A stretch of DNA of 55,803 bases from a virus (IMGVR_UViG_3300016472_000794:1-55803); one strand, 5' to 3'. Shown: positions 28,196 to 53,087, counted from the stretch's first letter. The notes: generated by a model not told the origin, from the sequence alone. Program-made: numbers and translations.

Positions 28196-29568
28196 CGCTC
28201 GAAATCACGATCCCCACACGACCCGCCCGCCCCTACCAGCGTAAGTTCTGGCGCTACATGGAGGGTGGCGGCAAGAACGCGTTCCTGGTCTGGCCGCGCC
28301 GACACGGCAAGGACGAGGCGGCGATGGCGTGGACCGCCGCCGACGCCATGCAGCACCCCGGAAACTACTGGCACTGCCTGCCGGAGTACGAGCAGGCGCG
28401 CAAGGCGCTCTGGGACGGCATTGACGCCAAGACCGGCATGCGGCGTCTCGACCAGATCTTCCCGCCCGAGATCGTCACGCGCCGGCGCGACAAGGACATG
28501 ATGCTGGAGCTGACCAGCGGTTCGACCTGGCAGCTCATTGGGTCGGATCGCTACAACCAGCTCGTCGGCGCCGGCCCGCGCGGTCTGGTGATGAGCGAAT
28601 ATGCGCTGAGCCACCCTGCGGCTTGGGCCTATTTCCGGCCGATGCTGCTCGACAGCGGCGGGTGGGCGATCTTCAACACCACGCCGCGCGGTCGCAACCA
28701 TGCCTACAAGCTCTTCCACGAGCACCAAGATGACCCGGAATGGTTCTGCGAACGCCTGACGGCGAACCAGTGCGGCGTCTTCACCGAGCAGGAACTGGAA
28801 CGCGAGCGGCGCGAATACCAGCTGGAGCTGGGCGTCGACGACGGCGACGCAAAGTTCAGGCAGGAGTATCTGTGCGACTGGAACGCGGCCATCGTCGGCG
28901 CCTATTATGCGCGCGAGATGGCGGCTGCGGAGAACGAAGGCCGTATCTGCGACGTCGCCTATGACCCCGGCCTTCCCGTCTACACCGGCTGGGACCTGGG
29001 TCGTCACGACAGCACCACGATCTGGTTCGTGCAGCGGTGCGGCGGCCAGATCCGGGTGATTGACTGCGAGACCGCAACCGGGGTCGGTCTGGACGCCTAC
29101 GCCAAGCTCCTGAAGGACAAGCCGTACGTGTACGCCACGCACTACTGGCCTCACGACGGCGCCCAAGGCGATGTTGGCATCATCGGGGGGCGCACGCGCG
29201 TCGAGGTCATGCGCGGCCTGGGCGTGACCCCTATCGAGGTGCTTGACCGAGAGCTGGACGGGATCGCCGACGGCATTCAGGCGGTGCGCCGCATCCTGCC
29301 GCGCTGCTTCTTCGACCGCACCCGCTGCAAGCTGGGGATCGACGCCCTGATCCAGTACCAGCGCAAGTGGGACGACAACGCCAAGACGTTCGCCAACACG
29401 CCCATGCGGAACTGGGCGACTCACTTCGCCGACGGCTTCCGGACCCTGGCCATGGGGCTGCCGACGCAATTCATCCCCGCCCCTGCGCAGGGTGAGTCCG
29501 ATCCGCGCTATAAATCGAGGGGTCGTGGCTCCAGGCGCGGGGGTTCTTCGTCGCGCTGGGCATTCTGA
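28192..29568 (+). CDS. terL: Terminase large subunit
   Basis: WPRRHGKD, SEYAL, NTTPRGRNH, WDLG..DST, HFADGFR. Confidence 0.95.
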   Translation: MTLEITIPTRPARPYQRKFWRYMEGGGKNAFLVWPRRHGKDEAAMAWTAADAMQHPGNYWHCLPEYEQARKALWDGIDAKTGMRRLDQIFPPEIVTRRRDKDMMLELTSGSTWQLIGSDRYNQLVGAGPRGLVMSEYALSHPAAWAYFRPMLLDSGGWAIFNTTPRGRNHAYKLFHEHQDDPEWFCERLTANQCGVFTEQELERERREYQLELGVDDGDAKFRQEYLCDWNAAIVGAYYAREMAAAENEGRICDVAYDPGLPVYTGWDLGRHDSTTIWFVQRCGGQIRVIDCETATGVGLDAYAKLLKDKPYVYATHYWPHDGAQGDVGIIGGRTRVEVMRGLGVTPIEVLDRELDGIADGIQAVRRILPRCFFDRTRCKLGIDALIQYQRKWDDNAKTFANTPMRNWATHFADGFRTLAMGLPTQFIPAPAQGESDPRYKSRGRGSRRGGSSSRWAF

Positions 29569-29577
29569 GAGGCGTCG

Positions 29578-30096
29578 ATGCCGGTTCCGCTGGACATCCT
29601 TGGTCGGTTCGTGGTGGCGCGGCGGGAATCCGGCGTGCTGGTCGAGGCGGACGATCTCGCCCGCAGCGCATCGGCCACGTTCACGCCGGCGGCCACCTCG
29701 CATCTGGCGGGAGACGTGGTGGGCGGCGCCCGGGAGTTCCAGCTCGCCGCACCGACCGGCCGCCTTTTCCAGATCGACACCGTCTCGCTGCTCATCAACA
29801 ACGCGACCATCGAAACCACGGCCTGGGCGCTGCATCTCTACTCCGTGACGCCGCCGTCTGCCCTGGCTGACGATGCTGCGTTCGATGTGCCGGCTGGCGA
29901 CCAGGCGTCCTATCTGGGATCGATTGCGATCCCGCAGGTAGTCGATCTGGGGTCGACGCTGTGGATTGAGAGCCACAACATCGGCAAGAAGGTGAAGCTC
30001 GCCGGGACCAGCGTATTTGGCTATCTGGTCAACGGCACGACACTGACCCCGGGCGCGGTGGCGCACATTGTCACGATTGCGGGCAGACCCATCTGA
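29578..30096 (+). CDS. Putative virion structural protein (beta-rich)
   Basis: Between terL and portal; Thr/Ala-rich beta pattern. Confidence 0.55.
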   Translation: MPVPLDILGRFVVARRESGVLVEADDLARSASATFTPAATSHLAGDVVGGAREFQLAAPTGRLFQIDTVSLLINNATIETTAWALHLYSVTPPSALADDAAFDVPAGDQASYLGSIAIPQVVDLGSTLWIESHNIGKKVKLAGTSVFGYLVNGTTLTPGAVAHIVTIAGRPI

Positions 30097-35582: not shown

Positions 35583-36017
35583 ATGCAGCAGATGAGCGAA
35601 GGCGCGCTGGCGGCGTTGCGCCGAGCAATGGGCATGTATGGCCCGCAGAGCGGCGACTCTGCGGCGGGGCCTTCGCTGGACGCCGGCGTCAATCGCGATC
35701 CGATGCGCGCAAATCCGGTCTATGGCGCCCAAGAACCGCTCCTTCCCCCGTCAGCTCCCGCTCCTTCCCCCGCCGCGCCCTCACCCGCCTCCCCGTCGGC
35801 GCTTGCGTCTCCGGCTCAGCCGGCGCTGAACCGCACGGCCTTCGACCCTGCCGACCCGGTGGTTGCCCGCGCCGGCCGCATTCTGCAGGAGGCGCGCCGC
35901 ATGGGCGACGTCTCGGCGACCACGCTGCAGACCCTGGTCGACGAGCTGTTCTCTTACCTGCCCGAGCCCCAGCGCAAGGCGATCACCTACCGCGCCATTG
36001 AGATGGCCGTTGGTTGA
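35583..36017 (+). CDS. Hypothetical protein, tagged-cargo family (N-terminal tag)
   Basis: GAGGAGG RBS; begins MQQMSEGALAALRRAMG. Confidence 0.65.
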   Translation: MQQMSEGALAALRRAMGMYGPQSGDSAAGPSLDAGVNRDPMRANPVYGAQEPLLPPSAPAPSPAAPSPASPSALASPAQPALNRTAFDPADPVVARAGRILQEARRMGDVSATTLQTLVDELFSYLPEPQRKAITYRAIEMAVG

Positions 36018-36646
36018 TGGGGACGATGGACGCCCTGCGCCGCGCCGCGTCGCTGGTGGCGGATCGCGCGTCGGTCGCGTTGCAGCGAGATCCCCTGACG
36101 GATCTCGTTCTTCGGGCGTCTGGCTTGCCCAAGGTGTCTGCGAGACGGTTTGTCGACTCGGAGGGTGAGCGGGTTCGCCATTACTCCGCCCTGCTCGATC
36201 CCCATGCGATGCTGATCGTCAACGTGACGCGCGAGAAGAGGCTGTTGCCCTCCGTGTCGTGGGATATCGGGCGCAACGATGTTTCGATGGGTCAGATTCC
36301 GCGTCCGGAGCGGGTTCGGCTGGCGCGCGCCGCTGCCGATCTGCTGCCTGAGATTCTCAAGGCCGACAGCCGTCGGCATATGACGACCGCCTATACGTTC
36401 CTGCCCATGGACACCGCAGGGTTTTCGCGCGGCGATTCTGCGTCGCGTATGCGGCTGTATCGGGGGCTGACCGAGCGGGCCGGAAAGGACTGGTCATTCG
36501 TGGAGCCGCGCGATGACAAGCCGCGCATCGTCTGGTCGCCAGCTCTGGGTAAGGACATCGCGGACGGCCTCGCTTCGACGGCCCTCCCCGCGGGTCTTGG
36601 CGCGGCGACCTATGGCGCGCTCGATTACTATGGACGCCCGCGCTGA
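36014..36646 (+). CDS. Hypothetical protein (possible GNAT-like fold), tagged-cargo family
   Basis: MGTMDALRRAA; YTF...SRMRLYR motif; C-terminal AGLGAATYGALDYYGRPR. Confidence 0.6.
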   Translation: MMGTMDALRRAASLVADRASVALQRDPLTDLVLRASGLPKVSARRFVDSEGERVRHYSALLDPHAMLIVNVTREKRLLPSVSWDIGRNDVSMGQIPRPERVRLARAAADLLPEILKADSRRHMTTAYTFLPMDTAGFSRGDSASRMRLYRGLTERAGKDWSFVEPRDDKPRIVWSPALGKDIADGLASTALPAGLGAATYGALDYYGRPR

Positions 36647-38522: not shown

Positions 38523-38717
38523 CTGTCGTATCATCCACGCAGACGCGACCCTGAGAGGAAGCGAGCCTGGCCTGGGGCTTCAATGCAGGCGCCGCGGTGT
38601 GAAGCCGAAAGGTCGATCCCCGCCTCCGCCTCGCGCGAGCGGATCGCGCGCAAAGCTCGCGCTCGCGACCCCCTCACAATTCGATCTTGCCGAAACCCCG
38701 CACGGAGTCTCACGTCC

Positions 38718-39809
38718 ATGTCTCAAAATCACTACCTGACGGGCGATCCCGAGGTGATGAAGTTCTGGTCGAAGCTCGTCCAGACTGAAGCCCTCAAGTC
38801 GACGCAGATGTTCAAGTATTTCGGTGACGACGAGCGCTCGCTCGGCGTTATCCAGTCCGGCCTGTCCAAGGGTGCGGGCGACCGCGTGTCGATGCCGCTG
38901 CGCATGCGCCTGACCGGCGCGGGCGTCACCGAGCTGATGCCGCAGGAAGGCAACGAAGAGGCGATTGTCTCCTACATCGACAACATCACTATCAACGAGC
39001 TGAGCCACGCGGTGCGCCGCCACAAGGGCATCTCCGACCAGCGCGTGCCGTGGGATGTGGGTCTGCAGCTGAGCCAGGCGCTGACCGACTGGTGGGCGGA
39101 GCGCTTCGACGAGATCTGCTTCAACCACCTGTGCGGCTACACGCCGGTGAACGACACCCGCTATACGGGCTTCAACACCGTGCAGGCGCCGTCCTCGGGT
39201 CGCCAGATCTGGTGCTCGACCTCGAACACCACCGACCAGTCGCTCGGCACGTCCGACATCTTCTCGCTCACCCACATCGACCGGGCGCGGGAAATCGCCA
39301 CCACCGGCGGCTCCGGCGGCCTCGTGCGCATGCGCCCGATCAAGGCCTCCATGGCCGACGGCGGCTACGGCGATATGTATGTCTGCTTCCTGCACCCGAG
39401 CCAGGTGACCCAGCTGCGCCAGGGTTCGTCCTCGCAGTGGAAGGAGATCCAGAACAACCTCCTGCAGGGCGGCTACATCCGCGAGAACGGTCTCTTCACG
39501 GGCGCCCTTGGCGTCTACAACAAGACGGTCCTCGTCGAGAGCGAGTTCGTCATGCAGGGCGTCAACTCGTCCACCGGCGCCGCCGTCTCCAACACCCGCC
39601 GCGCGGTCTTCTGCGGCGCCCAGGCGCTGGGCGCGGCCTTCGGCAAGGGCTTCGGCCCGCAGGAGGCGAAGGTGACCGAGGAGCTGTTCGACTACAACCG
39701 CGAGGTTGGCCAGAACCTCCTCAACATCTTCGGGGTCAAGAAGAGCCGCTGGAACAGCATCGACTACGGCACCATCGTGCTGTCGTCCTACGCCGCCCCG
39801 GCCGCCTGA
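38718..39809 (+). CDS. Major capsid protein (N4-gp56/DUF4043-like)
   Basis: LSKGAGDRV...L...L.G.GV...EGNEE, HAVR, YVCFLHPSQ..QLR, LFTGALGVYN, RAVFCGAQA, EELFDY, GVKKSRW. Confidence 0.92.
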   Translation: MSQNHYLTGDPEVMKFWSKLVQTEALKSTQMFKYFGDDERSLGVIQSGLSKGAGDRVSMPLRMRLTGAGVTELMPQEGNEEAIVSYIDNITINELSHAVRRHKGISDQRVPWDVGLQLSQALTDWWAERFDEICFNHLCGYTPVNDTRYTGFNTVQAPSSGRQIWCSTSNTTDQSLGTSDIFSLTHIDRAREIATTGGSGGLVRMRPIKASMADGGYGDMYVCFLHPSQVTQLRQGSSSQWKEIQNNLLQGGYIRENGLFTGALGVYNKTVLVESEFVMQGVNSSTGAAVSNTRRAVFCGAQALGAAFGKGFGPQEAKVTEELFDYNREVGQNLLNIFGVKKSRWNSIDYGTIVLSSYAAPAA

Positions 39810-39896
39810 TTGAGCTGGGCGCCTGCATGATGCGTGCAGGCGCCCGCCGCCCCCTCTTCCCCGCCGCCTGACCCTCACCCTTCTGGAGTAACCCCG

Positions 39897-40310
39897 ATGC
39901 CCGCAAACCCCCGCGAACGGGATCAGTTTCGTCAGCTGACCCACACCATGCGCAAGTATGTGACGTACAGCGACGCCGGCATCGACGCCGGTACGCTGCG
40001 CATGCCAGCCGCGCTGCCCGCTGGATCGATCATCACGCAGGTGATCGTGGATGTGGTGACGGCCTTCAACGCCGGCACCACCAATGTGCTGACGGTCGGC
40101 ACCCAGTCCGGCACCGCCAACGACATCGTCACCGCCGGCGACGTCAACGAAGGTGCGGCCGGCGTCAACAACGTGACCACGTCGGCAGCTATCGGCCACA
40201 TCGGGTCGAGCGCCATCGACCTGTTCATCAAATACGCCCAGACCGGCACTGCCGCCACCGCAGGCGCCGCGCACATCGTGGTGTGTTACATTCCCGACAA
40301 CGACGGCTGA
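39897..40310 (+). CDS. Head decoration/cement protein
   Basis: LPAGSII...VVTAFNAGTTNVLTVG...TGTAATAG; follows the capsid gene. Confidence 0.75.
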   Translation: MPANPRERDQFRQLTHTMRKYVTYSDAGIDAGTLRMPAALPAGSIITQVIVDVVTAFNAGTTNVLTVGTQSGTANDIVTAGDVNEGAAGVNNVTTSAAIGHIGSSAIDLFIKYAQTGTAATAGAAHIVVCYIPDNDG

Positions 40311-40385
40311 TCCGGCGCTTCAGCTTTCGTTAACAGCGGCGCGTGACGGTCTATCCCGTCACGCGCCGTTCTGATTCGAGGGATC

Positions 40386-42056
40386 ATGCCCAAGCACCGG
40401 GTTCTTATCGCCACCCCCGCCTATTCCGGGTCCGTCAAAGTCGATCACGCCGACAGCGTCGAGCGCCTTTTGGCGCTCGCTGGGCCGGATCTGGAGTTCG
40501 CCACCAGCCGCCCCATCGCGGTCGGCGTCCTGCCCCGGGTGCGCAATGTGCTTGCCGCCTACGCCATGGGGCAGGGATTCACCCACATCCTGTTCATCGA
40601 CGACGATATCGGCTTCGACGCCGAGGATGTGCTGCGCATGCTGTCGCACGATGTGGGCATCGTCGCGGCTGTGCCGCAGAAGCGCGTGCGGCGCTGGGAC
40701 GAAGGCAATCCCAAGCTGGCTGTGCGCCTGAAGCGGGATAATCCGAGCTATGACGAGGCCGCCGGCCTCATGGAGGTGCTCGACGTCGCGACCGCCTTCT
40801 GCCTCATCAAGACTGACCTGATGCGCCGCATGCTCGACGCCGGCCGGGTGGAGCGCTTCGTCTATCACACCGTCTCCCGGGAAAATGCGCCGTTCCTTGC
40901 GAAATTTTTCCACTACCCCCTGGAGCCCGTCGATCCCAGCGACGCTGAGTGGGCCTATTGCGAGAGCATCGGAATCGATCCCGCGACGGCGCGGGTTGAT
41001 ATTGGCGAGGACTATGCGTTCACCCGCGCGGCGCGGGCGTTCGGCGAGCGAGTCTATGTGGATGTGGGCGTGCGCCTGCGGCACTGGGACGGTTGCGTCA
41101 TGCATGACTACGCCTTCGCCGACGAGATCAGCCGCATCTATCGCAGCGCCCGCGCCGCCGGCGTCGTGACGAAGGAACCGCAGCGCCTGTCGGTTCTGCT
41201 GCCGACGCGGGGCCGTGTCGAGAGCCTGCGGCGCGCGCTCTATTCCATGGCCGCCACGGCGCGCCGCCCCGAGCTGCTGGAGGTGGTGCTCGGCGTGGAC
41301 TCGGATGACGCCGAGACGCTTTCGTTTGCCTTGTCCCTGCGTGATTTTCCCGTTGCGGTTCGTCCTTGCATTGCGGCGCGCGCGCCGACGCTTGGGCGCC
41401 TGTGGGACTCCCTCGCCTCCTCGGCCACCGGCTCCGCGGTCCTCTGGATGGCCGATGATTTCGTGATCGAGGGGCGAAACTGGGATGACGACCTGCGCGC
41501 GCTGGTCGAGCAGATGCGGGGCGGCCTTGGCCTGGCCTACCTGCCCAATTCCGACGTGCCGGACAGGTTTGTAGGGCTGCCCGCCTTCTCGCGCGCCATG
41601 ATGGAGCGCCTGCGCGCGCTGCAGGGTTTTCTCGTTCCGCCCTGGTTCCCCAACTGGTTCTCCGACACCTGGTTCGATGAGCTGTCCACGTTCACCGGGT
41701 CGCGCCACGCGATCAATGCGCGCGCCGTCGGCGACAGGCCGCCGTCGCATCGTCTGCGCGACCTAGGCTTCTGGCTTGATTTCTTCCACGCCACGCGCCC
41801 GATGCGCGAGGCGGTCGCCCGCCAGCTTCTGGCCGATCTCTACCCGCCCGAGCAGCAGGCGCGCCACCTCGCGCTCTTCCCTGAGCGCCGGCGCCTGTGC
41901 GTCGACAAGCTCGCGCCGCTGTCCAATCCTGCGACCCTCGCCGCACTGGAGGCGCGCGCCGCCGAGTTTGCGCCCGATCCCGCCTACGAGACGACCATGC
42001 GGGCCGCACGCGCCATGCTGCAGCGCTTGGAGTCCGGCGAGGTCGTGGCGGCGTGA
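40386..42056 (+). CDS. Tandem two-domain GT-A glycosyltransferase
   Basis: Domain 1: LIATPAY, LFIDDDI, GEDYAF, LRH. Domain 2: SVLLPTRGR, WMADD, WFSDTW. Confidence 0.85.
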   Translation: MPKHRVLIATPAYSGSVKVDHADSVERLLALAGPDLEFATSRPIAVGVLPRVRNVLAAYAMGQGFTHILFIDDDIGFDAEDVLRMLSHDVGIVAAVPQKRVRRWDEGNPKLAVRLKRDNPSYDEAAGLMEVLDVATAFCLIKTDLMRRMLDAGRVERFVYHTVSRENAPFLAKFFHYPLEPVDPSDAEWAYCESIGIDPATARVDIGEDYAFTRAARAFGERVYVDVGVRLRHWDGCVMHDYAFADEISRIYRSARAAGVVTKEPQRLSVLLPTRGRVESLRRALYSMAATARRPELLEVVLGVDSDDAETLSFALSLRDFPVAVRPCIAARAPTLGRLWDSLASSATGSAVLWMADDFVIEGRNWDDDLRALVEQMRGGLGLAYLPNSDVPDRFVGLPAFSRAMMERLRALQGFLVPPWFPNWFSDTWFDELSTFTGSRHAINARAVGDRPPSHRLRDLGFWLDFFHATRPMREAVARQLLADLYPPEQQARHLALFPERRRLCVDKLAPLSNPATLAALEARAAEFAPDPAYETTMRAARAMLQRLESGEVVAA

Positions 42057-42496: not shown

Positions 42497-43336
42497 ATGG
42501 CGCTTCCTCCCCTCCCCAAGGTGACAGCTGGCGCGATGGCGGCGCTGTCGCGCCTGCGCCCGTCTGCGGTCGATCCCTATCGCTGGCAGATGCTGGTGCA
42601 GAACGAAGCAGGCGGCGCGCGGCGCCTGATCGATACGATGCGCAAGGGGCATTCATCGTTCAGCGATTCGTCGAAGAACTGGGAGTTTCTGGGCTACGCG
42701 ACGCCAGACGGCGCCTCTAGGCTCAAGACGGACCATAGCCGGATGAGCGTGGGGCTGCCGTTCGTGCCCGCTGACACGGAAGGTCCTCTGATTTTTCACC
42801 ATTCCCATCCGCGCACCGGCTACGCGCCCGCCCTTCTCTCAGTCCCTGACATCAGCGCAACCTTCATGGCCGCCGGCGGGCGCGATCCACGGGGCGTTTC
42901 TGCGGTCGACCGGTATGGCGGCTACAATGCGCTCCTGCGTCACAAGGAAATGCGCGGCGCCAACCTCCCGAAGTCTCTTGTTTTCGATGTGATGCGGGCA
43001 GCCCGGGCAATGACCGACGGCGTGCCGCCTGTCTACGATGGTGAATACACATTTCGGGCGGGCGATTTCATCATGAGCATGGCGATCCAGGATGCGCTGG
43101 AGCGCGCTGGCGCGGCGCGTGCGGTTCGCGCCTTTGATGTCGATCCCTCGGCGCAATTCGCGGCGCCGCTGGCGGACCTGGAGCCTATTGCGGACGATGG
43201 CGTTCATCGCTGGCTGCGCGACCTGGGTGTCAGTCCACAGGCGCTCAAGGTGTGGAGCGCGCCCGCGGTCGCGGGCGGCGGGGCGCTTTCGGCGCTCTCG
43301 CGCGAGGAGCGGCAGCCATCCAGATCCCGCTCGTGA
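42497..43336 (+). CDS. JAB/MPN-like metalloenzyme, tagged-cargo family
   Basis: WE...FHHSHP...LSVPD JAB motif; tags GAMAALSR and AGGGALSALSREER. Confidence 0.65.
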   Translation: MALPPLPKVTAGAMAALSRLRPSAVDPYRWQMLVQNEAGGARRLIDTMRKGHSSFSDSSKNWEFLGYATPDGASRLKTDHSRMSVGLPFVPADTEGPLIFHHSHPRTGYAPALLSVPDISATFMAAGGRDPRGVSAVDRYGGYNALLRHKEMRGANLPKSLVFDVMRAARAMTDGVPPVYDGEYTFRAGDFIMSMAIQDALERAGAARAVRAFDVDPSAQFAAPLADLEPIADDGVHRWLRDLGVSPQALKVWSAPAVAGGGALSALSREERQPSRSRS

Positions 43337-43347
43337 TAGGATGAGAC

Positions 43348-43998
43348 ATGACGACCCGCGCCATCATGAAGACCAAGATCGCCAACGAACTGGCGCGCGC
43401 GGATCTTGACGCCGAGATCGGCGACGCCATCGCCACAGCCATCGATTTCTATCGCTGGAAACGCTTCTGGTTCAACGAGGTGGAGTCCGCCACGTCATCG
43501 ACGTCCAACGGCGTCGAATACTACGATCCTCCGGCGAATTTCCTTAGCGTCGACTTCATCAAGGGAACGCTCGGCGGCCAGACCTGGCCGCTGGAGGAGC
43601 AATCCAACCTCCTTCTGCGCGACTATCGCGCCACCGACGCCAACCAGAGCGGGCGGCCCTTCTACTGGGCCAAGGCCAACGCCCAGTTCCGGCTCTGGCC
43701 GATCCCTGACGACATCTACACGCTGACCTGGTCGGGCCTTCTCGATGTGGCGCCGACGAGCGACAGCGAGACCGACAACCCCTGGATGACGTATGGCGAG
43801 GCGCTGATCCGCGAGCGCGCCCGCGCCGAGGTGCGCATCAATGTCCTGCGGGCGGCGCCCGCAATTCAGGAGGCGGCGCAGCTCGCCTTGGCCGGCGAGG
43901 AGGCGCTGACCATGATCGAGAAGGCGGTCCATCGCCGCCTATCTTCCCAGTCGCGCAAGCGGACCAATACCGGCCGCATTCGCCCGAGCACGTACTGA
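43348..43998 (+). CDS. Head-tail adaptor protein
   Basis: IANELAR.DL..EI.DAI..AI, RFWFNE, GRP.YW, RLWPIPD..YTL, N.W...GEALI. Confidence 0.8.
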   Translation: MTTRAIMKTKIANELARADLDAEIGDAIATAIDFYRWKRFWFNEVESATSSTSNGVEYYDPPANFLSVDFIKGTLGGQTWPLEEQSNLLLRDYRATDANQSGRPFYWAKANAQFRLWPIPDDIYTLTWSGLLDVAPTSDSETDNPWMTYGEALIRERARAEVRINVLRAAPAIQEAAQLALAGEEALTMIEKAVHRRLSSQSRKRTNTGRIRPSTY

Positions 43999-43999
43999 C

Positions 44000-45166
44000 A
44001 TGGGCGTGATGAATATCCTGCGCTCGGCGCGGCGCGCGCTGCGGCCTGACACGACCGCCGCCGCGACCTTCCTTGGCCCGAGCGCGAGGACGTTCGACTG
44101 GGACCGTCTCATCACGGCCTGGCGCGGCGAGCTTGCGGGCGAGGATCGCTACAAGCTCTGGCGCGACACGATGACCACGCGCGCCGGCAATGGCGCATGG
44201 CATCAGGAAATCTCGGACCACGGCGCGGAGTCGACGTTCGACGCGGCGCTGCGCGGAACCGATCCGCGCACGCCGCACTGGGCGCGCATTCGCGACATCC
44301 TCCATCACCCGGGTCTGGAGGCCGCCTATGGCGACCGCCTCATGGCCTTGCCGGTGAAAATCATGGAGCAGCGCCCGAATGACCACCTCCCCGACGCGGC
44401 GATGGTCCTGCGGGGGCGCGACCTCACGCCGGTTGAGATGCGCTTCGGGCGCGGGTTCGCCAATGACCGACCGCACGAGATTTTTTCCGGCAAGCGCATT
44501 GCGCTGCACGAGACCCAGCATGGCGTGCAGGCCCTGGACGGCACGCCCATCGGCGACACCCCGCAGAGGCTGTTTGATGAGGCGACGCAGGCGCAGGCGC
44601 AGCGTCGCTATCTGGAGGCCATCGACCAGGCGCGCACCTATCTCGCGCGCGGCATGGCCGAAAACCCCGCCGAGGCGCTGAGCATGGCGCAGGCGCCGCC
44701 GGCGCGCATCCCCGTGCTGGTCAATAACTGGGACTCCGTCATGCGCGGGCTTGATCGCGATCTCGCGCGGGCGCGGGCCAACCCCTATGCCAACGTCGGC
44801 GATCCGGCGAAATTCGCCAATGAAGGGTACTTGGGCTCTGAGGGCGAACGAGATGCCCGATTGACTCAGGAGAGCGTCGATCTGACCGACGCCAAGCGCG
44901 CCGTCTTCCCGCCCTGGGTGCGCATGCGCTATCTCGGCTATGGCCCAGTGCAGGATGAGCGCAGCCTGATCGTTCACAGCCCGCCTGGGCATGTCGACAA
45001 AAACCAGCGCGCCATCGTCGGCCGCATCCTGCAGGATGACGCCATCGGTCGCGCGCTTGCGGATCTGGTCCGCGCTTCGGCGGCGGGCGGAGGCGCCGCC
45101 TCCGCGCTCGCCATCGCTGATCGCGCGCGCCAGGCGCAGGATCGGCGCCGGGAGTTCGCCGCATGA
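44000..45166 (+). CDS. LPD23-like plus HExxH metallopeptidase domain protein, tagged-cargo family
   Basis: W..T...R..NG.W..EISD, L.HP.L..AY, LHETQHGVQ, Y...GE.DAR; tags GVMNILRS and AGGGAASALA. Confidence 0.7.
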   Translation: MGVMNILRSARRALRPDTTAAATFLGPSARTFDWDRLITAWRGELAGEDRYKLWRDTMTTRAGNGAWHQEISDHGAESTFDAALRGTDPRTPHWARIRDILHHPGLEAAYGDRLMALPVKIMEQRPNDHLPDAAMVLRGRDLTPVEMRFGRGFANDRPHEIFSGKRIALHETQHGVQALDGTPIGDTPQRLFDEATQAQAQRRYLEAIDQARTYLARGMAENPAEALSMAQAPPARIPVLVNNWDSVMRGLDRDLARARANPYANVGDPAKFANEGYLGSEGERDARLTQESVDLTDAKRAVFPPWVRMRYLGYGPVQDERSLIVHSPPGHVDKNQRAIVGRILQDDAIGRALADLVRASAAGGGAASALAIADRARQAQDRRREFAA

Positions 45167-46617
45167 GAATCCCCTTCTCCGCCTGGACACCGGACGCCGC
45201 GGTGCTTGGTCGTGGCCGTCTGCGGGAGGCGCGCAACATCATTCCGCGCGCCGAGCACTATGAGCCGTTCTACAATCTGGTGACGAGCGGCGCCGCGCTC
45301 GATGCGCGCGGACGCGGGCTTGCGGCCTACAAGGACCAGGCCGGGGTCGCTCACCAGTATGCCGGCGACGCCGCGAAACTGTACGAGCGGGCCAGCGACG
45401 GCACCTGGTCCGATGTCAGCAAGGTTGGCGGCTATACGAGCACCGAAAGCTCCCGCTGGCGGTTCGCCCAGTTCGGCGATCTGTGCCTCGCCACGAATGG
45501 TCAGGACCCAGTGCAGTCTGTCGCAATGTCCGGCGCGCCGGGCTTCGCAAACCTTGCGGGCTCGCCGCCTGTGGCGCAGTTCATTGCAGCGTTCGACAAT
45601 TTCGTCTTTCTCGGCAATCTCGGCAGCAGCGCCTTCGGCTATCGCAACAGCTCGATCAATGACGCGACTGCCTGGGTCAATGGCGTCGACCAAGCGTCCG
45701 AGGGCGAGTTTCCAAAGGGCGGCGAGATCACGGGGCTTGTGTCCAACACGACCTCCCTCTTCTTCTTTCAGCAGACCATGATCCGGCGGGCGATCTACAC
45801 CGGCGGCCCGCTCATCTTCGACATTCAGCCCATCGAGGAAGAGCGCGGCTGCGCGGCGCCCGGGAGCATTGCAAGTTTCGGACAGTTCACCTTCTTCCTG
45901 GCGGAGGACGGGTTCTACCAGCTCACCGACGCCGGCGCGCAGCCCATCGGCGACGGGGTCGTCGACAAGTGGTTTCAGGCGGATTCACAGCGCGATTTCT
46001 GGTACCGGATGTCGAGCACCATTGACCCGTTCAACAAGCTCTACATCGTCGCGTACCCCTCGACGTCCAGCGTCAGCGGCGCGCCCGACTCGCTGCTGAT
46101 CTATAACTGGACGGTCGGGCGGTTCGCTTATGCGCGCCTGCCTGTGGAGGTGCTCTCCAGCATCATCGCGCTGTCGACGACACTGGAGGATCTCGACGCG
46201 ATCTACGGCAATCTCGACGCCATCCCGATCTCCCTGGATGACCCGCTGCTCTCCGGCGGCGTGCTGACGCTCGGCGCCATCGGCGCCGACCGAAAGCTCG
46301 GCTCCTTCTCCGGCGCGGCGCTGGAGGCCCTGATTGAGACGGATGATGTGCTTGGTCCTGAGGGCCTGGTGCAATTCATCACGGGCGTCATGCCGATGTC
46401 GGATGCGGCGCAGGCTTACGCCGCCGTCGGCGCGCGGATGCGTTCTGCGGACGCGGTGACCTGGTCGACGGAGCGCGCGATGCACCCGCGCTCCGGCGTC
46501 TGCCCTGCCCGCGTGAACGCGCGCTGGGCGCGGTTTCGCCTGCGCCTGCCCGCCGCCACGCAATGGTCGAAACTGGAGGCGCTGGAAGTCTCCATTGGTC
46601 TGGATGGAGAGGTCTGA
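45163..46617 (+). CDS. Tail nozzle / DNA stabilisation protein (P22 gp10-like)
   Basis: WTPD, WRFAQFG, RGCAAPGSI, FFLAEDGFY, PIG...VDKWF; beta-propeller-like. Confidence 0.8.
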   Translation: MRIPFSAWTPDAAVLGRGRLREARNIIPRAEHYEPFYNLVTSGAALDARGRGLAAYKDQAGVAHQYAGDAAKLYERASDGTWSDVSKVGGYTSTESSRWRFAQFGDLCLATNGQDPVQSVAMSGAPGFANLAGSPPVAQFIAAFDNFVFLGNLGSSAFGYRNSSINDATAWVNGVDQASEGEFPKGGEITGLVSNTTSLFFFQQTMIRRAIYTGGPLIFDIQPIEEERGCAAPGSIASFGQFTFFLAEDGFYQLTDAGAQPIGDGVVDKWFQADSQRDFWYRMSSTIDPFNKLYIVAYPSTSSVSGAPDSLLIYNWTVGRFAYARLPVEVLSSIIALSTTLEDLDAIYGNLDAIPISLDDPLLSGGVLTLGAIGADRKLGSFSGAALEALIETDDVLGPEGLVQFITGVMPMSDAAQAYAAVGARMRSADAVTWSTERAMHPRSGVCPARVNARWARFRLRLPAATQWSKLEALEVSIGLDGEV

Positions 46618-46715
46618 TGGCGTCGCCGATTGGACGTGTTGCCGGGGAGCTGACGGGCGGCGCGGGCGGCGCACTTGGCGCGCTCAACGCGCAAAGCGAG
46701 CGGCGTCAGGCATAA
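46617..46715 (+). CDS. 32-aa tag-only micro-ORF (not in the ORF track)
   Basis: MASPIGRVAGELTGGAGGALGALNAQSERRQA; TGATG coupling and GGAGAGG RBS. Confidence 0.6.
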   Translation: MASPIGRVAGELTGGAGGALGALNAQSERRQA

Positions 46716-46735
46716 TAGCGCGCAGGGAGGTTTTC

Positions 46736-47299
46736 ATGGTCGGACCCACATCAGGCTTGGCGCGCAGCGCGGGACGCGCCTGGATGCGCGGCGCGGGCGC
46801 GATTGGAGGAGACTGGATGCGCGGCGCGGGCGTCATCAGCGACGCGGCGCGGGCCGGCGCGGCGCGCCTGGAGCGCGCGCTGCCGAGCGGCGTGCTTGCG
46901 GCCCTTGAGCGCCAGCGCAGCGCGCCGGGCAAGGTTGGCGTCGTCGGCGGCGCCGATCTGAGCGGCTGGCGCGAGGGCGGATTCATGGGCGCCGCGCCCA
47001 TGCGGGAGCTGCCGGAAGAGGCGGACTGGATGCTGGCCGTTCAGCCCGGCAATCTGCGCCTTGGTCCGCGTACGGCGACCGCCGCCGGCGTCGGCGCCCT
47101 GGCGCTGTCCCTGCCCTTCGCAACCGATGACTGGCTTGACGAAAGCCGGGTCAACGAGCTGCGCGCCATCAACGAGCGCGCGCGCCGCAAGGAGCGCCAG
47201 GCGCAGGACTATGACCCCCGCGAGCTGGCGCTGATCTCGTTTGAGGAAGAGCGCCAGCGTCAGCTCTCCGAACGCCAGCGCGAGGGGATGTATCGGTGA
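46736..47299 (+). CDS. Hypothetical protein, probable tagged-cargo family
   Basis: GGGAGG RBS; GVLAALERQR and AAGVGALALSL segments. Confidence 0.6.
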   Translation: MVGPTSGLARSAGRAWMRGAGAIGGDWMRGAGVISDAARAGAARLERALPSGVLAALERQRSAPGKVGVVGGADLSGWREGGFMGAAPMRELPEEADWMLAVQPGNLRLGPRTATAAGVGALALSLPFATDDWLDESRVNELRAINERARRKERQAQDYDPRELALISFEEERQRQLSERQREGMYR

Positions 47300-47610
47300 C
47301 AGCGTCGCGGCAGATCCCCCCGACCGGCGCCGTATCGCCGCGTCGTCTCGCTGATGCGATCAACGCCGCGCTGCAGGGGCGTATTGAATCACGCGGGTCC
47401 GTGACCCTGACGGCCGGCGCAACCACCACGACGGTCGATCATCCGCTGGCCCATGCGGAGAGCGTGATCCTGCTGATGCCCACGACGGCCAACGCCGCGG
47501 CGGCGCTCGCCAATGTCTATGTCTCCGCCAGGGCGAGCCGAACCTTCACGCTGACGCACGCCAACAATGCGCAGGTCGACCGCACGTTTGAGTTCATGGT
47601 GCTGGGATGA
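47296..47610 (+). CDS. Small tail structural protein
   Basis: AINAALQGRI...G.VTLTAGATTTTV...FTLTHANN..DRTF; position after the nozzle gene. Confidence 0.7.
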   Translation: MTASRQIPPTGAVSPRRLADAINAALQGRIESRGSVTLTAGATTTTVDHPLAHAESVILLMPTTANAAAALANVYVSARASRTFTLTHANNAQVDRTFEFMVLG

Positions 47611-48017
47611 CGGTCACCGGCAGACTCTTTGGCGCAATGGGCGCCCTGCTTCGCCGACGCCTTGCGCAACCCGGATGGGCGGAGCATGAGCGCCTTTGGC
47701 GTGCGGCGTTTCTTGATCGACTCGCCAAGGAAGCATCTCGACCGTCGCGCCAAAGGTTGGTTGAGGATCTCGCGAACGGTGTGTCGCGCATGGATTCGCG
47801 CCAGATTGCGATTTTGCCCGCAGACTATCCGTTCAATGACGCAGAGCTGGCGATCTACGTGCCCATGGCGCGGGCGAGATACCGCCTCCTCTCAGACTGG
47901 CAACGCGCAAACAGGGAGTCGTATTCGCCGTCGCTCTCTCCGGCCCTCTATCTTGATGACGACGTGAAGCCCGATCCGTTTGAATATGATTTCCCCAAGC
48001 CATCAATCTGGTCCTGA
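47607..48017 (+). CDS. Hypothetical protein, tagged-cargo family (N-terminal tag)
   Basis: FGAMGALLRRR; ATGA coupling. Confidence 0.55.
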   Translation: MTVTGRLFGAMGALLRRRLAQPGWAEHERLWRAAFLDRLAKEASRPSRQRLVEDLANGVSRMDSRQIAILPADYPFNDAELAIYVPMARARYRLLSDWQRANRESYSPSLSPALYLDDDVKPDPFEYDFPKPSIWS

Positions 48018-48073
48018 GCGTCGCGCTCCGCGGGCCGCTTACGATGACGCTCCTGTCCCACCGAGTCGTCTTC

Positions 48074-48883
48074 ATGCCCACCTCCCCCGCCCGCCGCGCG
48101 CGCCGCGCACCGAAGCCCAAGAAGGCCGTCGCCCATGAACCCGTTCCTGCAATGGTCGAGCCCGATGCTCGCTTCCGGATTTCCGGCGCAGAGCCCGCAG
48201 ATCTTGGACCTGTTTTCTCCGGTCTTCAGTTCGCCGGGCGCGCTGGGCCTATCAGCGGCGGGCGCCCTTGGGCCGATCTCGCCGACGCCGCGCACCCCGC
48301 TGTCGCCGACCAGGACGCCGCCCCCGCCCCCGCCGGTGGAGATCCGGCCGACACCGCGCAATGGCGCGACGACGGGCGTGAGCCGGATCGACTCGCTGGG
48401 CCTGCGCCCGGGCCTGATGCTGCGGTAGCCGAGGACCTGAATCTCATCAACGTGTTCGAGACGTTCGCGGGCGCGCCCGCGGGCGCGCTTGAGCGCTTCA
48501 TTCTCGCGCACGCTGGCGAGATCGGCGCCTATCTCGACCGCGCATGCCGGCGTTCGGGTGGACGCTACACCGCAGAGATCATCCTGCGTCACGTCCTGCA
48601 GGGCGGCATGGGCCTGTGGCTTGTGCTCGGCGCCGAAACGGGCCGCCTGCGCGGCGTCATGGCGACGTGCATCCTCACCTACGAAACCGGCCTGCGCGAG
48701 GCGCAGATCTCTGCAGTCGCTGGCGACGGCATCGGCATGCGCCGCCTGCGCGCCTGGATGCCGCTCGTGCTCGACTGGGCAAGGTCGTGGGGCTGCGACG
48801 TCCTGTATTATGAGGGTCGCCGGGCGTTCCTGCGCACGGGGCCGTGGCGCATGCGCGCCTGCTCGGCAGAGATCAGACTCTGA
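48074..48883 (+). CDS. GNAT-like virion assembly protein (P22 gp14/T7 gp13 position); start uncertain
   Basis: C-terminal LWLV...GVMAT...AVAG...WARSWGC....EGR; just before the ejection genes. Confidence 0.65.
   Translation: MPTSPARRARRAPKPKKAVAHEPVPAMVEPDARFRISGAEPADLGPVFSGLQFAGRAGPISGGRPWADLADAAHPAVADQDAAPAPAGGDPADTAQWRDDGREPDRLAGPAPGPDAAVAEDLNLINVFETFAGAPAGALERFILAHAGEIGAYLDRACRRSGGRYTAEIILRHVLQGGMGLWLVLGAETGRLRGVMATCILTYETGLREAQISAVAGDGIGMRRLRAWMPLVLDWARSWGCDVLYYEGRRAFLRTGPWRMRACSAEIRL
48135..48428 (+). CDS. Overlapped 97-aa Pro-rich ORF
   Basis: Better GC3 bias than the enclosing frame by eye; MNPFLQW start and GALGLSAAGALG motif. Confidence 0.5.
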   Translation: MNPFLQWSSPMLASGFPAQSPQILDLFSPVFSSPGALGLSAAGALGPISPTPRTPLSPTRTPPPPPPVEIRPTPRNGATTGVSRIDSLGLRPGLMLR

Positions 48884-48890
48884 GGACGCC

Positions 48891-50213
48891 ATGACGGGAT
48901 CTTCCCGGCCCGCCACGACCACCGTCAGTCAGCAGCAGACGAACGAGCCCTGGTCCGGCGCTCAGCCCGCGCTGAACCTCGCCATGGGCTCGGCGATGTC
49001 GACCTTCAACCAGGGTCCGCCGCAGTATTATCCCGGCAACACCGTCGCGCCGTTCTCGCAGCAGACCGTGTCGGGCATGAACGCGATCCAGAACAACGCC
49101 CAGATGACGGCGCCCTGGGCGCAGACGGCGGCGGGCGGCATCAACGGCATTCTCGGATCAGGGCCGACGCCAGGGACCGGATTTGCGGCCGGCGTCGCCA
49201 GCGGCTTCGGCGCGCGCAATCCGTTCATGGGCGCCACTGCGGCGGCGGCGCGTACACCGAACGCGGGCCTTCAGGCGCTTTCGCCGTGGATGACCGGACA
49301 GGCTGGCGCGAACCCCTTCATCGGCCAGATCGGTAACATTGCCGGCCGGCCGGTGTCCGGCATCGGCACCGATACACTGACCCAGGCCGCAGGCGGCGGT
49401 TTCATCAACAACCCGTTCCTTGACCAGGCGGTGGGCCGCGCGACCGACGCGGTGCGCCAGAACGTCAGCACGATGTTCGCCCGCGGCGGACGGTTTGGGT
49501 CCAGCGCGCACCAGGACGTTCTGCAACAGGGCGTCGGCGACGTCGCCAGCCAGATGTACGGCCAGGCGTACCAGAGCGACATGGCCAACCGCATGGGTGC
49601 GGCGGGCCAGCTCGCCGGCTACGAGCAGGGTAATGTCGACCGGCAGCTGCAGGCGGCCAATGCGCAGGCGGGGCTTGCCGAACAGGGAATCGGGCGCCAG
49701 TACGATGCCGCGACCCTGATGCCCGCCTATTTCGAGCAGGGCCTCAATCGCGCACTGAGCGGCTTTGGTCAGGCTGGCAACATGTTCTCCACCGGCGTCA
49801 ATCAATCCCTCGGCGCCTTCGGCGCTCTGGGCGACGATTTCGCCTCGCGCTCGGGCACGACCCTCAACGCCATCGGCGCCATGCCGGGCGTCTACGACTT
49901 CGCCAATCAGGGTGCGCGCGACATCATGGGCGTGGGCTCGATGCTGGAGGGCTACGACCAGGCCCAGATCGACGCCGACCGCGCGCGCTGGGATTACACC
50001 CAGAACGCCGACCGCTCCAACATCGAGTGGCTCAACGCCATCGCGACCGGCCAGGGGCAGCTTGGCGGCACCAGCTACGGAACGCAGCAGGTGCCGTTCC
50101 AGCGGCAGAATCCCTTCTTGCAGGGCGTGGGCGCACTGGGTAGCATCGGCTCCCTCTTCTCTTCTTCGGCGGGCGGCACGTCCGCCATTGCGGGGATGTC
50201 CGCCTTCCTGTGA
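48891..50213 (+). CDS. DNA ejection/pilot protein
   Basis: GAGGA RBS; TTTVSQ..NEPW..AQP, YYPG.TVAPFS, NPF repeats, GRFGSSAH; Gly/Gln/Ala-rich. Confidence 0.75.
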   Translation: MTGSSRPATTTVSQQQTNEPWSGAQPALNLAMGSAMSTFNQGPPQYYPGNTVAPFSQQTVSGMNAIQNNAQMTAPWAQTAAGGINGILGSGPTPGTGFAAGVASGFGARNPFMGATAAAARTPNAGLQALSPWMTGQAGANPFIGQIGNIAGRPVSGIGTDTLTQAAGGGFINNPFLDQAVGRATDAVRQNVSTMFARGGRFGSSAHQDVLQQGVGDVASQMYGQAYQSDMANRMGAAGQLAGYEQGNVDRQLQAANAQAGLAEQGIGRQYDAATLMPAYFEQGLNRALSGFGQAGNMFSTGVNQSLGAFGALGDDFASRSGTTLNAIGAMPGVYDFANQGARDIMGVGSMLEGYDQAQIDADRARWDYTQNADRSNIEWLNAIATGQGQLGGTSYGTQQVPFQRQNPFLQGVGALGSIGSLFSSSAGGTSAIAGMSAFL

Positions 50214-50932
50214 TGCTGCCTCCCGAAGTCGACACCGCGCTGCATTTCGGCGGCGGCAAGGACAGCCTCGCCACGCTCTATCTGATGCGGGCGCGGTGGC
50301 CGAACCTTGTGGTGGTCTGGATGAATACGGGCGCGGCGTTCGAGGAGACGCGCGCGCAGATGGCGGCGGTGGCCGCCATGGTGCCGCACTTTCTGGAGGT
50401 GCGCAGCGATGTCATCGCCGACATCGCCGAGCACGGGTGGCCGGTCGACGTCGTCCCTGTCTCGCACACCGCGCTTGGCAAGCAGCTGACCGGCGCCGAG
50501 GGGCCCACGCTCCGGCCGTGGACGGAATGCTGCGCCAGCAACATCTGGTTGCCCATGTATGCGCGCATGCGCGAGCTGGGCATCAAGCGCATCATCCGCG
50601 GGCAGCGGAACGACGAGCCGTATCGCAACCGCAACCTGCGCGACGGCCTGGCGCTGGACGGCTTCATCTATGAGTTCCCCCTCGCCCAGTGGAGCGAGGA
50701 CGAGGTGTTTCGATATCTCGATGCCCTAGGCGTTGGTGTGCCGGCCTATTACGACGAGGTGAAATCCTCGCTCGACTGCTGGTGCTGCACGGCCTTTCTC
50801 GACGTCAAGGATGCGCAGGTCCGTTATCTGCAGCGCCACCATCCGGAGCGCTATACTGTGGTCGCGGCGGCGCTCGCCGCAGCGCGAGACGCGGTTGCGG
50901 ATGCGAGCGCTCCGTTGATGGAGGAGGTCTGA
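50210..50932 (+). CDS. PAPS-reductase-family (PP-loop) protein
   Basis: FGGGKDS, NTG, ECC, IRGQR..E, PL..WS..EV..YL, SLDCWCC. Confidence 0.85.
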   Translation: MMLPPEVDTALHFGGGKDSLATLYLMRARWPNLVVVWMNTGAAFEETRAQMAAVAAMVPHFLEVRSDVIADIAEHGWPVDVVPVSHTALGKQLTGAEGPTLRPWTECCASNIWLPMYARMRELGIKRIIRGQRNDEPYRNRNLRDGLALDGFIYEFPLAQWSEDEVFRYLDALGVGVPAYYDEVKSSLDCWCCTAFLDVKDAQVRYLQRHHPERYTVVAAALAAARDAVADASAPLMEEV

Positions 50933-52023
50933 TGGGGGCGACAGACTTTGGTGTTCGCGCCGCGCTGCGGCGGGCGGCGCAGGAGGCGGTGCGGCAGCGT
51001 CCCTATGGCGGCGGGCGTCCCGTCATGACCATCGAGCTGAACACCATGCTGCGCGATCCCGGTCGCCGCGCCGCGGAGGCCTTCGCCCGCGCCCGCGCGG
51101 CGGGCGACCCCATGGCGGAGCAATACACGGCCGGCCTTATCCGCGAGATGGAAGACCCCCGCACCAGGGCGGCGTTTGCTGCGGCGCTGGAGGAGGTGGC
51201 GGGCCTGCCCATGCCGAAGGACGCTTATCGCGCGCCGACAGTGCGCGATCCCCTCTCCTCGGCCGGATCGTATGACGGCGCCCTCGCGCCCAACCTCCGG
51301 ATCTCGCTGCCGCCGGACGTCGACATGGACAGGGCGCGGCGGCTCAATGCGGTGCTTGGGCGTGAGCTTGACCAGGCCGCCATGGCGTTTTCGACCCGCC
51401 GCGACGCCTCGCTGTTCGATCCGCCCGGTCCAGACTCGATGCGCGCCTACGGCATTCACGCCGCCTCCGACGGCCCTCTGTCGCCGGATGTGGCGCGCGA
51501 CGTCATGCGCGACCTGCCGGACAATGCGCTCTCGACTTGGCGCAGCGGCCCGCGTTCCTATGTAATGGATATCCACCCCTCCTACGGGGCGGATGGCCCC
51601 GTTGCGCCGGATCTTGGCGCCGTCAAGGGCGCGGCCCAGAATGCTTTCGGCCGGCGCGGCCTGCCCTATCAGGTGCAGGGCGCCGACATCGACTTGCCCC
51701 GGTCGGACTATGTGGAGGCGGAGGACTATGCAGGGCGAATGGCGCCCCCCGACGCCGGAGGAGCTGGCGGGCCTGCCGCTGACCTCGGTGGCGGATTTGC
51801 GCGCGATCCAGCGGGCTCGGGACTCCAATACCCTCGTACCGCCGAGGGATTTCGAGCGCTCCGTGCGCGCCTCGACGCCCGCTGGCAGGCGTTTGCTGAC
51901 GAGATTGCGCGCCGTCATGGCGAGGGCGCCGCTGTGGCGCTGCTTACGGCTCTGGGCGGCGGCGGCGCTCTGGCGGCGTCGCAGCGCGCGCGGGCCGATG
52001 CGCCGACGCTGAGCGCCGCATGA
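50932..52023 (+). CDS. Hypothetical protein, tagged-cargo family
   Basis: GGAGGAGG RBS; GVRAALRRAA and LGGGGALAASQRAR tags. Confidence 0.65.
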   Translation: MGATDFGVRAALRRAAQEAVRQRPYGGGRPVMTIELNTMLRDPGRRAAEAFARARAAGDPMAEQYTAGLIREMEDPRTRAAFAAALEEVAGLPMPKDAYRAPTVRDPLSSAGSYDGALAPNLRISLPPDVDMDRARRLNAVLGRELDQAAMAFSTRRDASLFDPPGPDSMRAYGIHAASDGPLSPDVARDVMRDLPDNALSTWRSGPRSYVMDIHPSYGADGPVAPDLGAVKGAAQNAFGRRGLPYQVQGADIDLPRSDYVEAEDYAGRMAPPDAGGAGGPAADLGGGFARDPAGSGLQYPRTAEGFRALRARLDARWQAFADEIARRHGEGAAVALLTALGGGGALAASQRARADAPTLSAA

Positions 52024-53087
52024 GCGCCGGCGGCTTCCGACGCGCGCTGGCCATCGCCGCGAGATCAGCATCCCCCCTGGAGGCGCTGAACACGCCCCTC
52101 CGCGCCACAACCATGGGGGCGCAGAAGGCGCTGGCGCGCTACAAGCCGCGCAAGGTGCCTGAGCGCATGCGGGATCTCGTGACGAACCCCGAGGTCGAGC
52201 GGCGCATGAACAATGCGATTGAGGAGGGCCGCTCCCTCAGGGCGGATCGCTGGTACGACACCGCGCCGCTCCTTGCGGCGTTCATCAAGGAGCTGGGGCC
52301 GACCGAGGGCAAGGCCGCGTTCGCCCGCTACGCCGACATTGTCGGCCTCACCTCCCCCGGCACAAGCGTGCCGGAGAACCTGCGGCGCGCCTCCTGGGTC
52401 TATGGGCTCGACCGCCGCGGCGAGGCCATGCCCGCCCACGCGCCCTCGCCCTATGGCGTGATGACGGAGAAGACGCAGCGCGGGCTGCTGGACAGCTATT
52501 TCTCGGGCAAGGGATTCCCGCTGACCGCCGCAAAGACCGCGAGCTTTGCGCAGAACGTCCGCGGCAACCAGACGCCCGTTTCCCTCGACCGGCATGCGCT
52601 GCGTCTGCCGGCGATCTTCTCGGGCGACAAGCGGTTCCTGCAGAATTCGGTGCAGGTCGCCGACGACAGTCCGGAGGGCATGACCCGCATCAATCCGCGC
52701 AAGCTGGTCGATGCGGGCCTCATGAATTTCGCGGACGCCTTCGAACAGCCCGCCTACTGGTCCGCGCGCCCTCGCCCGACCGAATACGCCGCGCTGGAGC
52801 AATACTACAGCGACCTCGCCGAGCGACACGGGCTGACGCCTGCACAGGCGCAGGCGGCGGCCTGGGTCGGCGGCGCCGACATCACGGACGTGCGAGACGC
52901 CCGCCCGCTTCTGGAGGCGTTCAAGGATCGCCTAGGCGTGACGGCGCGCGAACGCCAGATCTCCGAGGAAGACGCACTCAGCCGCATGATCCGCGGCGAG
53001 CAGCCGCTGCTCTCGGTTGCGGGCGCGCTTGGCGGCGCGGGCGCGCTTGGCGCCGTGCAGAATGAGCGTCGGTCGCGCCGCGCGTGA
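52020..53087 (+). CDS. HhH DNA-glycosylase-like protein, tagged-cargo family
   Basis: WY, TSP...V..N, KT.SF..N, V.LDRHALR, Y...E.YY..LA...GLTPAQAQAAAWV; C-terminal GALGGAGALGAVQNERR. Confidence 0.65.
   Translation: MSAGGFRRALAIAARSASPLEALNTPLRATTMGAQKALARYKPRKVPERMRDLVTNPEVERRMNNAIEEGRSLRADRWYDTAPLLAAFIKELGPTEGKAAFARYADIVGLTSPGTSVPENLRRASWVYGLDRRGEAMPAHAPSPYGVMTEKTQRGLLDSYFSGKGFPLTAAKTASFAQNVRGNQTPVSLDRHALRLPAIFSGDKRFLQNSVQVADDSPEGMTRINPRKLVDAGLMNFADAFEQPAYWSARPRPTEYAALEQYYSDLAERHGLTPAQAQAAAWVGGADITDVRDARPLLEAFKDRLGVTARERQISEEDALSRMIRGEQPLLSVAGALGGAGALGAVQNERRSRRA

Follow-up and report, generated by a model that had tools for sequence, protein, structure and literature searches.

What is the 32-codon open reading frame that directly follows the nozzle gene of this virus? 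The window, by which we mean the whole 55,803-nt stretch of viral DNA that was analysed, is ~67% GC and carries a podophage virion module on its plus strand from ~27.5 kb on (Table 1). Within this module, the product of 45163-46617 matches both phrog_3287 (E 1.9e-59) and PDB 8zkk_O ('nozzle gp16'; E 1.7e-11), and its homologue in Paracoccus phage KLEP18-1 (H11) is annotated as a putative nozzle protein. The frame behind it, here termed the micro-ORF, had been described in the original prediction as an unannotated 'empty cassette' made up almost only of a cargo tag, that is, as a cargo gene that had lost its central domain or as a stand-alone tag peptide. Comparison with a close relative points elsewhere: the micro-ORF is very probably the 5' stub of a small gene, which we call S, that has been split in the window by a 515-nt replacement.

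Table 1. Features of the window that bear on the micro-ORF, in order of position.
Feature	Coordinates	Strand	Remarks
Tail of 27506-28195	28097-28195	+	
Large terminase	28192-29568	+	
P22-like portal	30096-32483	+	
Major capsid protein	38583-39809	+	PF13252
Tail of 42497-43336	43238-43336	+	
SU10-type adaptor	43348-43998	+	Pfam SU10_adaptor; two genes 5' of the nozzle gene
Tail of 44000-45166	45068-45166	+	
Nozzle gene, 484 aa	45163-46617	+	TGA overlaps the micro-ORF ATG
GGAGAGG, Shine-Dalgarno-like	46606-46612	+	4 nt 5' of the micro-ORF ATG
Micro-ORF, 32 codons, very probably a chimeric stub	46617-46715	+	Sequence; codon usage; called on 4 contigs
Head common to P0019	46617-46672	+	Ungapped contig alignment; P0019 sequence; BLASTP
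515-nt segment absent from the ~96% relative	46673-47187	+	X4 and X6 joints
13 tail codons, the only clearly tag-like part	46674-46712	+	Codon log-likelihood ratio; null-tail ranks
AGGGAGG, Shine-Dalgarno of 46736-47299	46724-46730	+	5 nt 5' of its ATG
187-aa orphan gene	46736-47299	+	Last 36 residues are the P0019 C-terminus
3' part common to P0019	47188-47299	+	Codon phase kept reading from 46617 across 102 nt
104-aa gene	47296-47610	+	Directly after the nozzle gene in more distant relatives
Ejection protein	ends 50213	+	phrog_4287
PAPS-reductase-like gene	50210-50932	+	
Tail of gene ending 52023	51925-52023	+	
DUF7178 gene	52020-53087	+	
Tail of DUF7178 gene 52020-53087	52990-53087	+	Best match of the micro-ORF

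The initiation signals that had been predicted, a ribosome-binding site and TGATG coupling to the nozzle gene, are present as described, with GGAGAGG ahead of an ATG (46617-46619) whose A is common to the nozzle-gene TGA (46615-46617). At its other end the frame closes with a TAA (46713-46715) that is directly followed by a TAG, the pair spanning 46713-46718. Coding potential was assessed by a codon log-likelihood ratio of the coding frame against the off-frames, trained on 15 genes of the window. By this measure the micro-ORF scores +8.2 bits in frame, against -21.9 and -26.9 when read out of frame; a value of +8.2 is attained by 0.09% of off-frame 31-codon windows, and 6.5% of in-frame 31-codon windows score that much or less. 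Scored separately, the first part of the micro-ORF (the head shared with the relative described below) gives +3.5 against -14.7 and -15.9 in the other frames, and its 13 tail codons give +4.7 against -7.2 and -10.9. Since the exact 32-aa protein is already a called gene on 4 contigs in a protein collection, the micro-ORF is not unannotated everywhere, and that element of its description holds only in part. Searches of Pfam, PHROGs and NCBIfam returned no match for the micro-ORF, for the gene that follows it (46736-47299) or for the related protein P0019 introduced below.

The region 44000-48100 was found in sequencing runs from three samples of one study, with partial word shares in four runs from three other studies, and contigs of the runs X3 to X6 were compared with the window. 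Contigs from two other studies hold a relative that is ~96% identical to the window; a search with the 52020-53087 protein likewise led to P0001, which is 95% identical, has an identical tail and lies on a 13306-nt contig. The 13306-nt contig of run X4 shows 105 differences from the window across 44000-46672 and 17 across 47188-48100. It is ungapped against the window as far as 46672, where it passes directly to 47188, skipping 515 letters of the window and carrying 102 letters in their place. X6, a run of another study, has a 621-nt contig with the same 46672-to-47188 joint. Conversely, X3 contigs (46638-46801; 46863-47590) cross both junctions of the window at 0 differences, and these junctions are therefore not products of misassembly; an X5 contig extends over 46755-46949, and the window-type form is present in studies P1 and P3. 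Both forms of the locus thus exist in independent assemblies.

A search for shorter relatives of 46736-47299 identified the protein that joins the two halves. P0019, of 89 aa and encoded on a 13306-nt contig, shares 19 of its first 20 residues with micro-ORF residues 1-20 by BLASTP; its residues 21-53 (33 residues) have no match in the window, and its residues 54-89 (36 residues) are identical to the end of the 46736-47299 product, the two proteins aligning by BLASTP with E 1e-23 and 37/40 identities. The lengths agree as well: 56 nt of shared head, 102 nt of middle and 112 nt of shared 3' part add up to 270 nt, or 89 codons plus a stop, as in P0019, from which we infer the content of the relative's 102 letters. 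A longer frame therefore begins at the same start codon, its remainder lies downstream in the window in phase, and the junctions between the parts are real. Because P0019 consists of the micro-ORF head, a middle and the end of 46736-47299, the micro-ORF corresponds to the 5' stub of a small gene without a C-terminal tag; the P0019 C-terminus is the charged C-terminus of 46736-47299. The earlier view that the micro-ORF is a truncated remnant, as opposed to noise, is borne out by the existence of this longer gene at the same locus. The check that had been proposed, for a longer gene with the same ends in related phages, was only half borne out: P0019 is longer and has the 5' end alone in common.

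These relations suggest the following course of events. S would be a small accessory gene located directly 3' of the nozzle gene in this lineage, and in the relative it forms one 89-codon gene that runs from the nozzle-overlapping ATG to the stop used by 46736-47299 in the window. In place of the 102-nt middle of this gene, the window would have received the segment 46673-47187. This segment contains a tag-like tail, the TAATAG double stop, a Shine-Dalgarno sequence and ~150 codons from the beginning of the gene that follows, and would thus have supplied 13 codons, two stops, a new start codon (ATG) and a strong ribosome-binding site ahead of it, the outcome being a 32-aa stub and a 187-aa gene that retains the last 36 residues of S. 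The stub is probably still translated, because the Shine-Dalgarno sequence, ATG and nozzle coupling of S have all been retained. With its stop positioned 20 nt 5' of the next ATG, ribosomes ending on the stub just ahead of the 46736 Shine-Dalgarno sequence would re-initiate on, and so pass to, 46736-47299. The stub is most likely an ordinary recombination scar.

We found no donor for either the 515-nt or the 102-nt middle, both of which are orphans. The 515-nt segment has no paralogue in the window or in 170 related loci. The 46736-47299 protein has no homologue in viral contigs, and among 1.84 billion representatives it matches itself and P0019 only; P0019 as the query matches only itself. 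The N-terminal region of 46736-47299 contains a 33-nt tandem duplication at 46772-46832 (28 nt compared, 89% identical), and the first 50 codons of this gene have a codon score of +4.7, the rest scoring +35 to +40. The head of the micro-ORF bears a weak likeness to the duplicated unit (22/30 nt, in the same codon phase), which hints that the 187-aa gene may itself be of the S type, although two-copy matches so short often arise by chance. If the likeness is real, the stub would resemble a partial copy of an S-type N-terminus, whichever the direction of change.

That direction is the subject of the alternative that survives best. The two-cistron form could be ancestral and the 89-aa gene a later fusion, in which case the micro-ORF would be a maintained leader coupling the nozzle gene to 46736-47299; the 20-nt spacing between its stop and the next ATG would suit such a role. 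Searches with the nozzle protein of phages and of viral, genome and metagenome contigs gave more distant relatives, none above 41% identity. In 170 such loci, taken with flanks of 4 to 10 kb, tblastn found no match to the micro-ORF, to 46736-47299 or to any of the five tagged genes discussed below. The homologue of 47296-47610 was matched in 28 of the 170, and in at least 8 of the 13 closest loci read it begins right at the nozzle stop or overlaps it. As S is absent from all 170 distant loci, no outgroup polarises either form, and the window-type form occurs in more assemblies, the 32-aa and 187-aa proteins each being on 4 contigs and P0019 on 1. Against an ancestral two-cistron arrangement, however, joining the two cistrons would still have required 102 nt of unrelated sequence that by chance preserved the frame, and the stub head weakly resembles the duplicated unit of 46736-47299, a likeness that may be chance. 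We consider a later fusion quite unlikely, and take the split of S as the working interpretation in what follows.

How, then, did the micro-ORF come to look like a tag? The products of five accessory genes in the virion module have a C-terminal tail in common, a Gly/Ala zipper core and after it a basic stretch; three of the five stops overlap the start of the next gene. The tail codons of these genes have codon log-likelihood ratios of 6.4 to 19.2. When the micro-ORF is aligned to the tails, its best match is that of 52020-53087, with a local score of 49 that 1 of 2000 composition-preserving shuffles equals; the other four tails match weakly, 104 to 264 of 2000 shuffles doing as well or better. 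A null set of 12000 stop-terminated six-frame ORF tails, drawn from related loci with a GC content of at least 0.62, allowed this resemblance to be located. For the whole 32 aa, P is 0.0009 for the best tag and 0.00008 for the sum over the five tags. The 13-aa tail alone gives 0.0003 for the sum and 0.009 for the best, the shared head alone ~0.17 to 0.20, and residues 1-32 of P0019 ~0.09 to 0.11. The tag-likeness, a modest resemblance, thus lies mainly in the 13-residue tail, within the replaced segment, and the description of the micro-ORF as almost only a cargo tag fails for its head.

Pattern searches gave a mixed outcome. Across the six-frame translation of the window, a regular expression for the Gly/Ala core has 5 hits, which are all plus-strand and lie 9 to 18 aa from a stop. 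They include the micro-ORF, whose zipper lies within the 18 residues before the stop; the tail of the gene that ends at 52023 narrowly fails to match. The tagged set is otherwise defined by a tail on a domain-sized accessory protein, which the 32 codons of the micro-ORF do not provide. In a leave-one-out test, a hidden Markov model of the other five tails listed those tails and nothing in 46362-46715 at E values up to 100. The likeness to the C-terminus of 52020-53087 noted in the original prediction stands by the shuffle test; the five-tail profile speaks against the micro-ORF as a tag. As a separate matter, we considered a C-terminal transmembrane anchor. Such an anchor comprises a ~19-residue hydrophobic stretch with a mean Kyte-Doolittle hydropathy of ~1.6 or more; the maximum over 19 residues is 0.83 in the micro-ORF and 1.05 to 1.50 in the five tagged tails, all below that value, and the candidate was rejected.

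These comparisons bear directly on the possibility that the micro-ORF is a tagged cargo gene minus its central domain, or a free tag peptide that might, for example, fill the binding site of the tag. The tail does resemble those of the five tagged genes, and coding-like codon usage, a good Shine-Dalgarno sequence, a coupled start and an identical 32-aa product on 4 contigs all speak in its favour. The longer gene in the relative, however, has only its 5' end in common with the micro-ORF, is just 89 aa long and ends without a tag, and it is to this gene that the head, the Shine-Dalgarno sequence and the coupling belong. A central-domain deletion is contradicted by the DNA itself, of which the window has more at this place, not less (515 versus 102 nt). 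The micro-ORF core, moreover, has the lowest hydropathy of all the tails, and the profile built from the other five misses it. Together, these observations make a deleted cargo gene or free tag peptide very unlikely, and the support that the micro-ORF was thought to lend to the tag as a discrete module is indirect at best: it comes from the 13-residue tail only, and the core of the DUF7178 tail is ancestral.

Two further possibilities can be set against the split of S more briefly. That the micro-ORF is an untranslated frame left open by chance in a non-coding spacer is most improbable: short open frames are common at 67% GC, this one being open from 46362, and the RNA fold of 46590-46760 is unremarkable (z = -1.89, with 9 of 200 shuffles folding equally well), but codon usage singles out the micro-ORF frame, its first 56 nt open a gene of 89 aa that is called in the relative, and no promoter-like or terminator-like site was found in 45800-47400 to account for the 118-nt gap. 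The chance that it serves as a -1 frameshift extension, tagging a fraction of the nozzle protein, is negligible, since the frame is indeed -1 to the nozzle gene and open from that same point, but no X XXY YYZ slippery heptamer occurs in any frame of 46362-46620, codon usage 5' of 46617 is off-frame, and the micro-ORF has a Shine-Dalgarno sequence and ATG of its own.

If the micro-ORF is the stub of S, its tag-like end might be explained by where the replacement began. Inspection of the left junction shows 13 consecutive identical nt, plus a second run of 8 nt, between the micro-ORF and the 3' end of 52020-53087 in a Gly-run, and divergence beyond it. This divergence indicates that the micro-ORF tail is not a recent copy of the phage's own DUF7178 tail. 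The left crossover may instead have occurred in the GC-rich Gly-run that is common to the S head and the tag-coding 3' ends, in which case the 13 codons would have come from the 3' end of a donor's tagged gene; we hold this account tentatively, at somewhat less than an even chance. In two of the tagged genes the final codons are GCA TGA, within which the following gene starts (ATGA); those of the stub, GCA TAA, are one transition away. This agreement would favour a donor-tag origin of the tail, and we give it little weight.

Members of the DUF7178 family, which is found in many phages and in a Bradyrhizobium record, have a conserved C-terminus, and this is the tail core of 52020-53087; given this family-wide conservation, the tail is not an add-on in that gene. 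A profile of six tails had no match with E < 1 in 1.35 Mb of related loci. In 51 viral loci that contain DUF7178 homologues, no other ORF tail beats internal controls (at a score of at least 35, 10 tails versus 13 controls), which argues that the sharing of the tail by five proteins is peculiar to this lineage. An AF2 model of 52020-53087 (mean pLDDT 86.6) places residues 334-355 below a pLDDT of 50 and unpacked from the domain. This flexibility, together with the weak likeness of the N-terminal half of 44000-45166 to phage internal virion or structural proteins (described below), fits the idea that the tagged proteins may be virion-associated accessory proteins with a flexible C-terminal address. 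By analogy with encapsulin targeting peptides, one could go further and propose that the 13-codon tail came from a tagged gene of another phage, and that the five tails form a portable address to the head or ejection apparatus whose coding sequence doubles as a recombination joint for swapping cargo; we regard this broader scheme as unlikely. Were it true, the tag would direct injected enzymes into the head or ejection apparatus, and podophages would swap cargo cassettes by means of it.

The best precedent for the locus is also the simplest. Mosaic recombination junctions and gene remnants are well established in tailed-phage genomes, and the present case resembles them in its near-identical genomes, swapped internal segment, truncated frame and new cistron boundary. 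It differs in that the left junction lies in a Gly-run that also occurs at the 3' ends of five accessory genes, by virtue of which the stub acquires a tail resembling theirs. A split gene at a mosaic junction is common in phage genomes and matters little alone, and it would be wrong to take the micro-ORF for a further, sixth independent tag or for proof of a free-standing module. The lead lies in the position of the junction, exactly where the S head and the tag-coding 3' ends have the Gly-run, with a tag-like tail next to it in frame. If a donor with a tagged gene ending in the 13-residue tail were found, it would mean that tags are exchanged between phages as units, and such exchange, if true, would make the role of the tail on the five virion-module accessory proteins directly testable.

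Other systems offer more distant parallels. T4 uses a capsid targeting sequence that is N-terminal and is cleaved by the prohead protease. The two cases share a short common peptide proposed to send non-structural proteins into the head, but the motif here is C-terminal and no protease was identified. In encapsulins, encapsulation depends on C-terminal targeting peptides (PMC7925596). Like these, the phage tails are short C-terminal peptides rich in small and aliphatic residues that are carried by unrelated proteins and encoded beside an HK97-fold shell gene, and the tail of 52020-53087 is unpacked from its domain in the AF2 model; unlike them, the phage tails end in basic residues, the tail core is ancestral in DUF7178, and the micro-ORF is, on our reading, a stub as opposed to a cargo protein. 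The literature searched, part of it in incomplete form, held no description of a C-terminal packaging tag in a podophage. For S itself, the T7 proteins gp6.7 and gp7.3 come to mind, which are small virion proteins associated with the core or nozzle (PMC11784390). S (89 aa) is likewise small and encoded beside a podophage nozzle gene, an analogy of size and position only; we found no sequence similarity of S, which is an orphan, to either protein.

Several observations concern the tagged proteins in their own right. No paper on DUF7178 was found in the literature searched. In structural comparison, the closest hits of the AF2 model of 52020-53087 are HhH-GPD DNA glycosylases and DUF2419, a queuine salvage enzyme (3n0u_A, Z 9.8, rmsd 4.0, 182 aligned; 7ugk_A, Z 8.5), all of the top 23 structural matches falling in the HhH-GPD/DUF2419 fold group, and a Foldseek search with the model gave no match at E <= 0.001. 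The comparison is suggestive, not proof, of a glycosylase-like fold for this helical protein. The PAPS-reductase-like gene 50210-50932 lies nearby, with the tagged gene ending 52023 in between, and this neighbour and the glycosylase-like fold together make a possible role in DNA-base modification worth testing. Between the adaptor and nozzle genes, the tagged gene 44000-45166 (388 aa) contains an HExxH motif, and its residues 23-247 weakly match internal virion or structural proteins of Pseudomonas phages such as phiC725A and LKA5 (E 2e-4); in the related locus L167 the adaptor match ends at 9857 and the nozzle match starts at 10001, leaving 143 nt and no space for a gene between them.

The C-terminus of 36017-36646, which has a Gly/Ala core and then residues that finish in RPR, looks like a divergent tag; both the regular expression and the profile miss it. 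At the opposite end, the proteins that begin at 35583, 36017, 44000, 50932 and 52020 have a similar short basic helix, with LRRA or RRAL in the first 20 residues. As these motifs are common in this GC-rich DNA (58 six-frame hits), the N-terminal likeness may be due to chance; in 52020-53087 the helix is part of the fold in the AF2 model.

Elsewhere in the virion module, 576 nt at 39810-40385 without an assigned gene precede 40386-42056, which is located between the capsid and tail genes and encodes a 556-aa protein with weak matches, below the Pfam cutoff, to glycosyltransferase family 2. Further upstream, the 701-aa product of 33467-35572 has a Gly-rich N-terminal domain (PF21722, below cutoff), followed by many tandem repeats of ~19 residues and then by a charged helical C-terminus, and is probably a fibre or decoration protein.
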